Made by a program: the position numbers and the translations under genes
Part shown: piece by piece, positions 1 through 9,872 of the stretch
Numbering within the stretch: position 1 is the first letter of the stretch
Layout: each line of letters begins with the position of its first letter
Notes under the pieces: generated by a model
The model's database searches: none
Told to the model about the DNA's origin: nothing
Seen by the model: only the letters and a program-made list of their open reading frames with translations
Virus record (IMG/VR): IMGVR_UViG_2778261151_000009
Span: 1 to 10,237 of that record
DNA from: a virus
Lineage: Duplodnaviria > Heunggongvirae > Uroviricota > Caudoviricetes
Strand: one strand, 5' to 3'
Length of the DNA stretch: 10,237 bases

Positions 1-296
1 CGCGTTGTTTCCGGTATATCGACTTTGATGTACGGGTTAATTTGTCTGGCGACAGTGGCAAGGTCTTTATTCAGGAGGGCTTTGCATTCTGCTTCGGTAT
101 ACGTTTTACCGAGCATGATGTCTTTTCCGGTGTGTCCGTGGCATACAGTCCATACGCCAACGATATCTTTGTATGGTATGTAGCTGACACCTTCCAGACC
201 ATCGTTACCACCTGGGCCAGTGATGAGCACAGACGCTATGGCAATAGCCCCACCACCAATAGCAACTGCAACAGCCTTGCGTAATGATGGCGACAT
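1..296 (-). CDS. R: SAR endolysin (phage 21 R-like lysozyme), N-terminal ~98 codons only; gene continues beyond window start
   Basis: Absent from ORF track because truncated by the window edge. Minus-strand ATG at 296-294 overlaps the holin stop (TAATG). Own translation: [98 protein letters not shown]. It has a Gly/Ala-rich weakly hydrophobic N-terminal helix (signal-anchor-release type) followed by a lysozyme-like E-x8-D-x5-T motif, and sits directly downstream of the holin. Confidence 0.85.
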
Positions 297-511
297 TATT
301 CACCTCTCGCAGCCTTACGCTTGTCTTCTCTGATTTTGAAGTACAGATTTGTCAGATAAGTCAGGAAGCCCAGAACCAGACTCCCCAGTACACCAATCGC
401 AGCCCACTGTGACGGACTGACCTGATCAAGCCACTGTAAAAACCAGTAGCCAGCACTGCCTGCGGAGGTGCCGTAGGCAATGCCCGTTGAAATTTTGTCC
501 ATGGATTTCAT
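296..511 (-). CDS. S: Class II holin / pinholin, phage 21 S-like (71 aa) with dual-start motif M1-K-S-M4
   Basis: ORF track 296..511. Protein [71 protein letters not shown] has two TM segments and a charged C-terminus. Strong SD (GGAGGTGAGG) upstream; stop overlaps endolysin start. Confidence 0.9.
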
Positions 512-803: not shown

Positions 804-878
<75 letters not shown>

Positions 879-881
879 ATA

Positions 882-957
<76 letters not shown>

Positions 958-959
958 AC

Positions 960-1036
960 TGGACCGCCACCGGGGACTCGAACCTCGCACACTCAACTTA
1001 AAGGGTTGACGCTCTTTCCTGATGAGCTAGTGGCGG
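960..1036 (-). tRNA. tRNA-like gene, Lys-type anticodon UUU but atypical anticodon loop (C at position 33)
   Basis: Reverse complement CCGCCACTAGCTCATCAGGAAAGAGCGTCAACCCTTTAAGTTGAGTGTGCGAGGTTCGAGTCCCCGGTGGCGGTCCA. Perfect 7-bp acceptor stem, 4-bp D stem, 5-bp anticodon stem (TCAAC/GTTGA), loop CCTTTAA, T-loop TTCGAGT, encoded CCA. Isotype uncertain. Confidence 0.55.
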
Positions 1037-1040
1037 TTGG

Positions 1041-1113
1041 TGGCCCTTGCTGGATTTGAACCAGCGACCTGGCGATTATGAGTCGCTCGCTCTCACCACT
1101 GAGCTAAAGGGCC
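1041..1113 (-). tRNA. tRNA with CAU anticodon; resembles tRNA-Ile2 (lysidine type) more than elongator tRNA-Met
   Basis: Reverse complement GGCCCTTTAGCTCAGTGGTGAGAGCGAGCGACTCATAATCGCCAGGTCGCTGGTTCAAATCCAGCAAGGGCCACCA; anticodon loop CUCAUAA. From memory the body resembles E. coli ileX-type tRNA. Confidence 0.75.
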
Positions 1114-1289: not shown

Positions 1290-1322
1290 GCATGAATATA
1301 TGCCTTTCAATCTACTTTTGCA
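1290..1322 (-). promoter_or_regulatory. Candidate late promoter pR' (-35 TTGCAA, ~16-17 bp spacer, -10 TATATT) overlapping the Q-like gene end
   Basis: Minus-strand reading ttgcaaaagtagattgaaaggcaTATATTcatg. Position between the Q-like gene and the terminator/tRNA/lysis block matches lambdoid late-region architecture. Confidence 0.45.
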
Positions 1323-1995
1323 ACACTTTGCTTTGAAAATGCCGTCTTTTTTTTGAACGTGTTCTCATTACAAACAATAAAGCCTCACTATCCAGTCGGT
1401 GAAAAATGTGTTTCATTGCAACCCAGTGACGAGTAAATGTTTTGGACCAGTTTTTAGTTGTCACTCCCGCCAGTAATGCCAGCTCCTGGTATTCATAACC
1501 TTCCCCACCAAAAAGTTCTGCTTTTACTGCCTGCGCCGCCAGCCAGATTAATTTTTTCAGGCGTTCCTGCGTTTTCCCTGCAATTTTTCTGGTACCGGAT
1601 TGAGCATTAAATTCATTCCACGCCCACTGTGTTATCGCGATCTGATATTCCCAACAAATACTCCCGCTGTAACACCACAACAACCAGGCTTTATGATGTT
1701 CTTCAAGAGACAGAACAGCCCGCCGCCACGATGATGTCGAAAACTCAACCGGACTGACCAGAGGAATTGACGTCCCCTTCGCCAGCGATTGCTTTCCCGG
1801 GATTGGTGGATTATCCCGCGTTATCATTTTTCCAGTCACTTCATCGCGGTACCGGATTTTTTTACGCCTGTAACGCCCTGTATCGAACATGGCATTCTCT
1901 TGCCAGGCTTCAAGCTGACCTTTTGTTGCCCCACTCAAATCAGCGGTGGCGATAATGAGCTGCTCACGCACAAACTGTAAATACTGGTTATTCAT
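1312..1995 (-). CDS. Putative late-gene antiterminator Q-like protein (227 aa from ATG at 1995; family assignment by position)
   Basis: ORF track 1312..2001 (its first codon is GTG). ATG at 1995-1993 overlaps the rusA stop as ATGA. Located immediately upstream of the pR'-like promoter, tR' hairpin, tRNAs and the S/R cassette, downstream of rusA. No motif verified by search. Confidence 0.55.
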   Translation of the reverse strand: MNNQYLQFVREQLIIATADLSGATKGQLEAWQENAMFDTGRYRRKKIRYRDEVTGKMITRDNPPIPGKQSLAKGTSIPLVSPVEFSTSSWRRAVLSLEEHHKAWLLWCYSGSICWEYQIAITQWAWNEFNAQSGTRKIAGKTQERLKKLIWLAAQAVKAELFGGEGYEYQELALLAGVTTKNWSKTFTRHWVAMKHIFHRLDSEALLFVMRTRSKKRRHFQSKVLQK

Positions 1996-2351
1996 GCGCA
2001 CCCCAGTTCTGTGATTTTTATCCCCAGCCGCCCACCAGGAACGAGCTGACCGCGCACAATATTGATTTCATCAAACTGCTCGTCGTCTATAAGTAGTCCA
2101 GCATGCGTCAGCGCATCCAGCGGTGCCTTCAGGATATTGTCCAGGTCACGACGGCGCTTATCCGGTGGCTCTGCAATAATCTTTATCGCCAGCCTTCCGG
2201 ACAGGTTTAATTTCAGTCGCTGCTGGCGAACAATTAGCGCCACATCACGGCGATAACGCTCACCGGCTTTTGATACAGTCGCCAGTAGGTGTTCACCGTT
2301 GGCGGGTAAGGCAAAACAAATTCTATGCGTTCGGTCATTTATGCTTTCCAC
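1992..2351 (-). CDS. rusA: Holliday-junction resolvase RusA; N-terminal region apparently frameshifted (possible pseudogene or sequencing error)
   Basis: ORF track protein contains PDKRRRDLDNILKAPLDALTHAGLLIDDEQ and GGRLGIKITELG, matching the RusA catalytic core. The canonical N-terminal motif (MTERIEFVLPYPPTVNTYWR) is in another frame, starting at ATG 2338-2336 right after the upstream stop. Confidence 0.8.
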   Translation of the reverse strand: MESINDRTHRICFALPANGEHLLATVSKAGERYRRDVALIVRQQRLKLNLSGRLAIKIIAEPPDKRRRDLDNILKAPLDALTHAGLLIDDEQFDEINIVRGQLVPGGRLGIKITELGCA

Positions 2352-3397
2352 TTCAGAACACCCGAATTTCTCGCGTGCATTAAAAAACGAATCAGCAACA
2401 ACAACTGACTACCGTGTTTTTCTTCAAAATCTTTTACCCCGGCGTGTAGTTCGTTATGGCATTTACGACACAGCGGAATAACAAACAAATCGTCAGCCTT
2501 TGTTCCCATCCCTCCCAGTCCATGACCAATGATGTGGTGCGGATCATCTGCCTGATTGCCACACGTCATGCATTTCTGCGTTTTTACCCAGCGCGTGTAT
2601 ACAGGCATCTCTTCCCGTTGTGGTTTCTGGCGCTGGAGATACTGAGCCGGAGATTCCGGATCAACGGCAATGCTGACCACCGTCTCTTCCTGTGGTGGAT
2701 TCTGTTGCTGGTGGGCGTGAGGCAGCGGCGCAAGATTTTTTGTGCGCTGCTTCAGTATGCTGGTGGCGGTCTGCTCTCCCGGCACGATGTCGCTTTCACG
2801 GTACATTGAGCGGATTTTTTCCGCACGCAACCCCAGCGAACGACGTAATACCGCTTCCGGTAGCGCGTCCGCCACCTGATTGCGGACCGCCCACCAGGAT
2901 AATTCAGCCAGAGATAATTCACGCTCCTGCGTACCGCTTATTGCGTGACCGATGACGTCAATCATCCATGCTGACAGGTTTTGATGAGCAAGTTGCTCGA
3001 GTGATTCGGATGTCTGGTCACGCAACTGGTTGTCGCAGTGCCAGCACAACACCATTGCGCCGGTACCATAACGGTGAATGACGGTTTCGCTGTGATGATA
3101 ATCGCCGTGTGGCCACTGGCAGGATTTAATATGGCGCAACAGCCAGTCAGACAATGCACCAGCACCACCAGCAGCACGAATCACCCGTGCGTTACTGAAA
3201 AACGGCAGCAATGTTTTGTCTTCCACTAGCGGCTGGCGAACGGCAGGAACGACCCCGGACGGCAGATTACGCATGCTTTTCGGTTCCGGCTCCACCAGTA
3301 CCCGGGTATTGTGGAATACCGGCATGGATTCACGGCCTGGCTTAAGGACCACCAGCCCGAGTTCCGGAACCAGAACAGGTCGAAGTAATACCCGCAC
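2339..3397 (-). CDS. DUF968 / YdfU-like prophage protein with C-terminal HNH-like zinc-binding motif
   Basis: ORF track 352 aa; first codon is GTG overlapping the upstream stop. C-terminus CMTCGNQADDPHHIIGHGLGGMGTKADDLFVIPLCRKCHNELH = CxxC...HH...CxxCH...H. Position between a Rem-like gene and rusA matches Qin-type prophages. Confidence 0.7.
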   Translation of the reverse strand: MRVLLRPVLVPELGLVVLKPGRESMPVFHNTRVLVEPEPKSMRNLPSGVVPAVRQPLVEDKTLLPFFSNARVIRAAGGAGALSDWLLRHIKSCQWPHGDYHHSETVIHRYGTGAMVLCWHCDNQLRDQTSESLEQLAHQNLSAWMIDVIGHAISGTQERELSLAELSWWAVRNQVADALPEAVLRRSLGLRAEKIRSMYRESDIVPGEQTATSILKQRTKNLAPLPHAHQQQNPPQEETVVSIAVDPESPAQYLQRQKPQREEMPVYTRWVKTQKCMTCGNQADDPHHIIGHGLGGMGTKADDLFVIPLCRKCHNELHAGVKDFEEKHGSQLLLLIRFLMHARNSGVLKWKA

Positions 3398-3844: not shown

Positions 3845-4000
3845 TTACTCCTCAGGTTCGTAAGCTGTGAAGACAGCGACCTCCGTCTGGCCGGTTCGGA
3901 TTCGTACCTCGCAGAGGTCTTTCCTCGTTACCAGTGCCGTCACTATGACGGTTAAACAGATGACGATAAGGGCGATTAACATCGCCTTTTGCTGCTTCAT
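3845..4000 (-). CDS. hok: Hok/Gef family type I toxin (51 aa)
   Basis: MKQQKAMLIALIVICLTVIVTALVTRKDLCEVRIRTGQTEVAVFTAYEPEE is a single TM helix plus the conserved Hok periplasmic tail. ORF track extends it in frame to an upstream ATG at 4057. Flanked by promoter, terminator and 5'/3' complementary elements. Confidence 0.9.
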   Translation of the reverse strand: MKQQKAMLIALIVICLTVIVTALVTRKDLCEVRIRTGQTEVAVFTAYEPEE

Positions 4001-4176
4001 AGCCTGCTTCTCCTTGCCTTTCGGCACGTAAGAGGCTAACCTACATGTGTTCAGCATGGATTGAGCCTCAGATTAATGTTAAGCGTCTTGCAGGACGCGT
4101 AATGTTAACTGGGGCTTTTCTCTATCTGCCTTTTGGTGTTCATGCCTGAGACAGATAGCCTCAAGCACCCGCAGTC

Positions 4177-9591: not shown

Positions 9592-9703
9592 TTGAAAACC
9601 AGAACGGGTGGAATTATAGTGCACCTGCACCTCATAAAACGGGTGCCGGGCGTGGAAACCCGAAATCATTCACGGCGCATAACCGCGCTCAGGCGGTTTT
9701 TTT
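9592..9703 (+). promoter_or_regulatory. Promoter-terminator unit: -35 TTGAAA (9592-9597), 17 bp, -10 TATAGT (9615-9620); terminator hairpin ACCGC-gctcag-GCGGT plus T7 (9682-9703)
   Basis: Near-consensus sigma70 elements followed about 60-75 nt later by a stem-loop and seven T. Could be a small RNA or an attenuating leader for the Rha-family gene. Confidence 0.4.
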
Positions 9704-9872
9704 ATGCGTTAAGCACAGCCACATTCGCATTATGGTGGGGCGTGCAGGGCAACCGCAAGGCTGGCCGGGTTCCGTGATGACCGGTATTTCCACCCCTGTA
9801 CGTCTCACCACCCTTATGGTCGTGGAAAACCTCGGTGGTGAGTTAATCAAATTCATCGCGGAGGCTGCCATC

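Follow-up and report, generated by a model that had tools for sequence, protein, structure and literature searches.

The Holliday junction resolvase RusA of Escherichia coli K-12 is encoded by the DLP12 prophage and is represented by the structures PDB 1Q8R, 2H8C and 2H8E. The protein has a four-stranded sheet and two helices, its residues 13-16 contact DNA, and residues 15-28 form a flexible loop that is proposed to enter the junction where its centre opens, with R24 and T25 as candidates for the recognition of unpaired bases and D70, D72, K76 and D90/D91 as the catalytic residues (PMC1636454). The K-12 gene is normally quiescent and suppresses ruv mutations only once an IS element activates it (PMC1636454). 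Closely related rusA genes are found between ydfU, encoding a DUF968 protein, and the antitermination gene Q. E. coli FDAARGOS_944 (NZ_CP065613.1, 652553-652918; WP_000140020.1) carries this gene order with an uninterrupted 121-aa rusA. The same ydfU-rusA-Q module is carried by the PPompW/Stx2a-converting phages, vB_EcoS-689R5 and vB_EcoM-606R7.

These systems were compared with the window, i.e. the whole stretch of DNA analyzed (10,237 nt), in which all features of the rusA locus are on the minus strand. The aligned DNA of FDAARGOS_944 over rusA and its edges is identical to the window, and the two share the ydfU-rusA-Q order, the TAAATG and ATGA gene junctions, the downstream four-tRNA cluster and the lysis genes; they differ in 19 bp that are present in FDAARGOS_944. 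The phage modules showed ~93% DNA identity to the window over a 601-nt query, gaps included, and their records also differ from it in having the 19 bases (619-620 nt per 600-601) and a rusA annotated as complete. By sequence, the K-12 and window RusA belong to the same family and fold, and both retain the catalytic Asp/Lys residues as well as the Arg-rich loop; both genes are prophage-borne and presumably dispensable. However, the K-12 rusA is intact but silent, whereas the window rusA is broken, with the equivalents of residues 20-26 gone and the frame shifted. The window very probably carries part of a lambdoid prophage in whose late-regulatory module, ydfU(DUF968)-rusA-Q, rusA is an ordinary pseudogene formed via a 19-bp deletion. 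Since the K-12 DLP12 gene is quiescent until IS activation (PMC1636454), we infer that a prophage rusA would be dispensable in a ruvABC-proficient host, so that its loss would be tolerated; this dispensability fits neutral decay.

Reading frames at the rusA locus

The DUF968/ydfU gene is closed by TAA 2341-2339 and is directly adjoined by ATG 2338-2336 (TAAATG). The frame opened by this ATG reads MTERIEFVLPYPPTVNTYWRLYQKPVSVIAVMWR, carries the canonical RusA N-terminus MTERIEFVLPYPPTVNTYWR and terminates at TAA 2236-2234. The frame of the RusA core is that of the ORF-caller gene (1992-2351, minus strand), which starts at GTG 2351 and reads MESINDRTHRICFALPANGEHLLATVSKAGERYRRDV... A sequence-only reading of the window had assigned the RusA N-terminus and core to different frames at these positions, and all elements of that assignment were confirmed in the sequence. 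Over its first 20 codons, the ATG-2338 frame does not differ from the intact 121-aa RusA of FDAARGOS_944 (L001:3163-3528), and the aligned sequence flanking the break on either side is also identical to the intact allele, indicating that the motif in the ATG-2338 frame is not a chance occurrence. The features of the locus and of its surroundings are collected in Table 1.

Table 1. Coordinates of the rusA locus and of other features in the window.
Feature	Position	Strand	Description
Holin-like ORF	296-511	-	Aligns with the 71-aa product of L004 7841-8056, which has a precomputed Pfam Phage_holin_2_1 assignment
Four tRNA genes	804-1113	-	Between Q and the holin-like ORF; CAT, Lys-TTT, Thr-TGT, Gly-TCC
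Antitermination protein Q	1312..1995	-	227 aa, ATG 1995, intact; Pfam Phage_antiter_Q, 304 bits; downstream of rusA
RusA core	1992..2276	-	Residues 28-121 of the intact protein and stop TGA 1994-1992; out of frame with the native start
rusA N-terminal remnant	2234..2338	-	ATG 2338; native codons 1-20 (MTERIEFVLPYPPTVNTYWR), then 14 out-of-frame codons (LYQKPVSVIAVMWR); TAA 2236-2234
Deletion junction	2277..2278		19 bp, GTCGTGGCAGCACATATTT (coding strand), absent relative to intact alleles
Off-frame leader used by ORF/gene callers	2279..2351	-	GTG 2351, MESINDRTHRICFALPANGEHLLA
DUF968/YdfU-family protein	2339..3397	-	352 aa, HNH-like C-terminus, intact; Pfam DUF968, 213.8 bits; upstream of rusA
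hok/sok-type toxin-antitoxin locus	3845-4170	-	Upstream of ydfU
isrK Hfq-binding sRNA	9627-9703	+	67.7 bits
C4 antisense RNA	9728-9815	+	76.3 bits; adjacent to the isrK match

The off-frame leader corresponds to the native N-terminus read in the -1 frame, and its overlap with the DUF968 gene covers the last 13 nt of that gene; at its other end, the junction codon ACT occupies 2279-2277. Part of this -1 frame (2300-2325, minus strand) reads HRICFALP, in which RICFALP resembles the hydrophobic pattern of the native RIEFVLP. The likeness is a matter of chance, and it inflates the BLASTP coverage of the off-frame ORF against true RusA proteins. A weak terminator-like hairpin at 2238-2252 (minus strand; CGCCGTGATGTGGCG followed by CTAATTGTTC) immediately precedes the stop at which the native frame ends prematurely. 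This hairpin is probably also due to chance; its sequence is present in the aligned intact alleles as well, and such matches number 6 here versus 3.6 expected.

The 19-bp deletion and its distribution

Megablast of positions 1900-2500 (601 nt) against 5,426 complete E. coli genomes gave matches with at least 80% query coverage in 710 of them, and the end-to-end matches among those listed had 618-620 record nt per 600-601 query nt, i.e. the extra 19 nt were present. Similar results were obtained for phage records, in which 12 of the 12 listed end-to-end matches (from 13 near-full-length ones) keep the 19 bases, with 618-620 nt per 600-601 query nt. In the best match, E. coli FDAARGOS_944, every aligned position from 2359 to 1980 is identical to the window except for one 19-nt gap, and by this alignment the window lacks GTCGTGGCAGCACATATTT between 2278 and 2277. 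The FDAARGOS_944 allele encodes an uninterrupted 121-aa RusA, MTERIEFVLPYPPTVNTYWRRRGSTYFVSKAGERYRR..., which scores 59.1 bits against Pfam RusA and covers profile positions 1-110.

The lesion had been placed near 2277-2284 and attributed to a single-base indel. The placement was almost exact, the true junction being 2278/2277, but the single-base indel was rejected, as the gap to FDAARGOS_944 is 19 nt and the length of the canonical loop is fixed. YRRDV follows LPxPP at a distance of 26 residues in K-12 RusA and in 64 of the 65 related clusters, and the single exception is itself frameshifted. Because this distance is fixed, a one-base repair, which gives 115 aa, would not restore the canonical protein. 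The canonical product of about 115 aa envisaged from the sequence alone was too short: the ancestral protein has 121 aa, and a one-base repair leaves six loop residues missing.

The deletion spans position 2 of codon 21 to position 2 of codon 27, removing RRGSTYF and shifting the frame by one base. Its left breakpoint is at the centre of a palindrome in the intact allele (CGAC/GTCG, the slash marking the breakpoint). No microhomology was found at the deletion, as comparing each end of the deleted segment with the opposite flank gave no match, and slipped mispairing between direct repeats was rejected as its cause for this reason. In another broken allele, L019:601-927, the left breakpoint (GGCGACG/) is 1 nt away from that of the window (GGCGAC/), and both fall within the palindrome GACGTC of codons 20-22. 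Since two deletions of independent origin start only 1 nt apart, this palindrome could be a fragile site or deletion hotspot, or the agreement could be a coincidence.

The 81-nt stretch around the junction had no contiguous match in the 5,426 complete E. coli genomes, and exact-junction scans gave zero matches in GTDB species representatives, IMG/VR viral contigs and JGI metagenome contigs. The deletion allele was located only via exact-protein look-up. The exact 119-aa product of the GTG-2351 ORF is already deposited as STG99435.1, "Holliday junction resolvase [Escherichia coli]", and was found on at least 24 contigs (NCBI, ENA and Logan). The junction was identical in all of the 11 loci fetched, ten of them for the 119-aa product and one, L020, for a related protein, P0002; these loci came from NCBI assemblies that are independent of one another, from an assembly of an ENA metagenome and from several separate runs assembled in Logan. 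At least 20 samples contained one and the same contig form. Contig UGBG01000002.1 of GCA_900448845.1 matches the window with 100% identity over 8,351 bp. The junction-bearing loci do not all share one prophage context, and at least two contexts could be told apart: downstream of rusA, the terminase and portal region of L005 is a different one, and L007 has relBE and flxA upstream, with 9 mismatches. The surroundings of L007 suggest a spread of the junction by recombination.

L020 (GCA_900449095.1, UGBT01000002.1) has the same junction as the window and differs from it over 5,358 bp by 19 single-base deletions and no mismatches. These deletions fragment ydfU, rusA, Q and the lysozyme gene, and they look like uncorrected long-read assembly error rather than biology. 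A second frameshift in P0002 was put down to the same assembly noise, as the 19 single-base deletions are the only differences between its locus and the window.

Such errors bear on the question of whether the genome has an intact rusA from which 19 bases were lost by sequencing or assembly. In favour of an artefact, GCA_900448845.1, the closest source assembly, shares its accession series with the error-bearing GCA_900449095.1. However, the errors in L020 are single-base ones, and assembly errors do not typically remove 19 bp cleanly from non-repetitive sequence; moreover, the same junction was recovered in 11 of 11 loci from independent assemblies, with one contig form in many samples. A sequencing or assembly artefact is hence extremely unlikely, and the sequencing error that had been offered as one explanation is effectively excluded. 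The identity of the junction in all 11 fetched loci, in differing contexts, indicates instead that the allele with the 19-bp deletion is inherited and did not arise as a read error. The real inactivating frameshift, proposed as another explanation, was borne out by the deletion shared among the 11 loci, with the inactivation itself being predicted from sequence.

Predicted products of the broken frame

A gapless alignment links the intact allele to residues 6-118 of the E. coli RusA structure PDB 1Q8R (E = 2e-24), so that the deleted residues correspond to RusA residues 20-26, within the flexible loop. In the ancestral 121-aa gene, the 19-bp deletion removed most of codons 21-27 (RRGSTYF) and shifted the frame. 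Ribosomes that initiate at the native ATG 2338 would then make a 34-residue peptide ending at 2236-2234, and the catalytic core (2276-1995) would be readable only in the -1 frame, from a chance start at GTG 2351. The GTG-2351 product would lack the authentic first β-strand, the DNA-contacting LPxPPSxN turn and the loop. In the window, no single continuous frame joins the N-terminal strand, the LPxPPSxN turn, the loop (15-28) and the core. We infer that an active Holliday junction resolvase would not be made.

The 119-aa ORF scores above the cut-off of Pfam PF05866 (45 bits versus 22.8), with the match limited to its residues 23-99 and to profile positions 19-110 of 124. The catalytic residues are kept as D69, D71, K75 and D89/D90, equivalent to D70, D72, K76 and D90/D91 of E. 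coli RusA, and the Arg-rich DNA-binding loop (E. coli residues 66-69) is kept as R66-R68; across 121 relatives, R67, D69 and D90 do not vary. At its N-terminus, 24 unrelated residues replace residues 1-27 of the intact protein. An AlphaFold2 model of the 119-aa ORF with 121 relatives had a mean pLDDT of 49.6, low throughout, with residues 1-33 below 50, which leaves the model uninformative about the fold. A weak GGGTG element lies 8 nt upstream of GTG 2351, so some 119-aa product with all catalytic residues could be made from this start.

The search of a 5.8-billion-protein collection with the 119-aa ORF returned 409 RusA relatives, and the query together with the best 120 clusters of these relatives was classed by N-terminus. 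The LPxPP motif is in frame with the core in 73 clusters (8,653 member sequences), an off-frame start (MESINDR... or MTDAHRF...) is present in 13 clusters (34 member sequences), and neither is found in 35 clusters (2,989 member sequences), mostly fragments cut at contig ends. Intact rusA alleles are the norm.

The proteins with an off-frame start return to the RusA frame at five or more different points (after GEHL, LLAT, HIF and IKSR, among others). In those of the alleles that were aligned as DNA, the off-frame stretch still encodes the LPxPP motif in the other frame. The other frameshifted alleles (P0033, P0045, P0081 and others) resemble the window in having the off-frame MESINDR.../MTDAHRF... 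start followed by the RusA core, but their lesions differ from the 19-bp gap: a 1-nt deletion in GCCGGTGAG was identified in L016, a 1-nt deletion in the T-run TATTTT in L014, and a deletion of ~67 nt in L019 (protein P0081, GCA_027666965.1). The lesions in L014, L016 and L019 are independent of each other and of that in the window. As each allele re-enters the RusA frame at a different point, the MESINDR... N-terminus is a gene-caller product of any rusA broken near its 5′ end and not a conserved variant.

A divergent N-terminus had also been considered in the sequence-only reading, with homologues sharing the MESINDR... start and having no LPYPP motif named as the observation that would overturn a frameshift. 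Such predicted proteins formally exist, but on inspection they are other frameshifted alleles; the MESINDR... start was seen only in frameshifted alleles with different re-entry points, and the divergent N-terminus was not upheld.

The retention of every catalytic and Arg-loop residue in the 119-aa ORF would also be expected if the allele were a functional variant, i.e. if a RusA-like protein were translated from GTG 2351 in which RICFALP replaces the native first strand, yielding a loop-less junction binder or nuclease. Such a variant is further favoured by the alternating hydrophobic pattern followed by LP in the off-frame N-terminus, by a strand at residues 11-15 in the AlphaFold model (at very low confidence) and by the presence of the allele in many samples. 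Against it, this N-terminus is simply the -1 frame of the canonical one, other alleles with such an off-frame start return to the RusA frame at varying places (which speaks against a conserved design), the LPxPP-to-YRRDV distance is otherwise fixed at 26 residues and both the LPxPPSxN turn and the loop are absent here, the native ATG abutting the ydfU stop is better placed as a start, and the modelled residues 1-33 have a pLDDT below 50. A functional variant is therefore very unlikely. It is just as improbable that a translated GTG-2351 ORF folds as a loop-less RusA and binds branched DNA, whether as an altered-specificity nuclease or as a non-cleaving junction binder; if true, it would account for the allele staying unchanged in many samples. 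The unchanged allele itself neither supports nor excludes residual function.

The two frames might also be joined in translation by programmed -1 ribosomal frameshifting, since a -1 shift is what leads from the ATG-2338 frame to the core frame and a CAA-AAG lies within the frame overlap. The lysine tRNA can slip at CAA-AAG at low frequency. However, no X-XXY-YYZ slippery heptamer was found in the ATG-2338 frame from start to stop, intact relatives need no frameshifting, the configuration results from a recent deletion in a minority lineage only, and the joined product would still be without the loop. The probability of programmed frameshifting is accordingly vanishingly small.

With the pseudogene as the preferred reading, STG99435.1 and the ORF-caller gene of the window would both be gene-caller artefacts, and the annotation should read as a frameshifted rusA with its native start at 2338. 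It is a pseudogene of a well-known family, already public under a misleading protein annotation. The locus offers a clean example of prophage gene decay that matters little beyond annotation hygiene, and the 19-bp junction can serve as a simple lineage marker; nothing new is learned about the RusA mechanism from this allele.

The prophage module around rusA

The order of a lambdoid late-regulatory module is present in the window, with rusA directly upstream of Q and followed by the tRNAs and lysis genes, and the same order was found in relatives and phages. The exact DUF968 protein belongs to a cluster of 5,135 members, and the exact Q protein, with its start as annotated in relatives, was found on 152 contigs. 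The Q start codon and the rusA stop share bases in ATGA, and Q is closely preceded by a Shine-Dalgarno-like element, GGGGTG. Given the frameshift, ribosomes from the native rusA start stop 238 nt before Q. With its own GGGGTG element, an intact gene and the same protein on 152 contigs, Q expression would be largely unaffected.

FDAARGOS_944 shows the reverse arrangement: rusA is intact and Q is annotated as frameshifted (L001:3525-4213). The window and FDAARGOS_944 carry sister prophages that are decaying at different genes.

The tRNA with the CAT anticodon was assigned to Met by ARAGORN and is annotated as tRNA-Ile in a relative. In the hok/sok-type locus, the sok RNA matched Rfam at 3995-4170 (118.9 bits), and the hok-family ORF at 3845-4057 is annotated as hokD in a relative. 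On the plus strand, the adjacent isrK and C4 matches (9627-9815) resemble a P1/P7-type antirepressor-control region.
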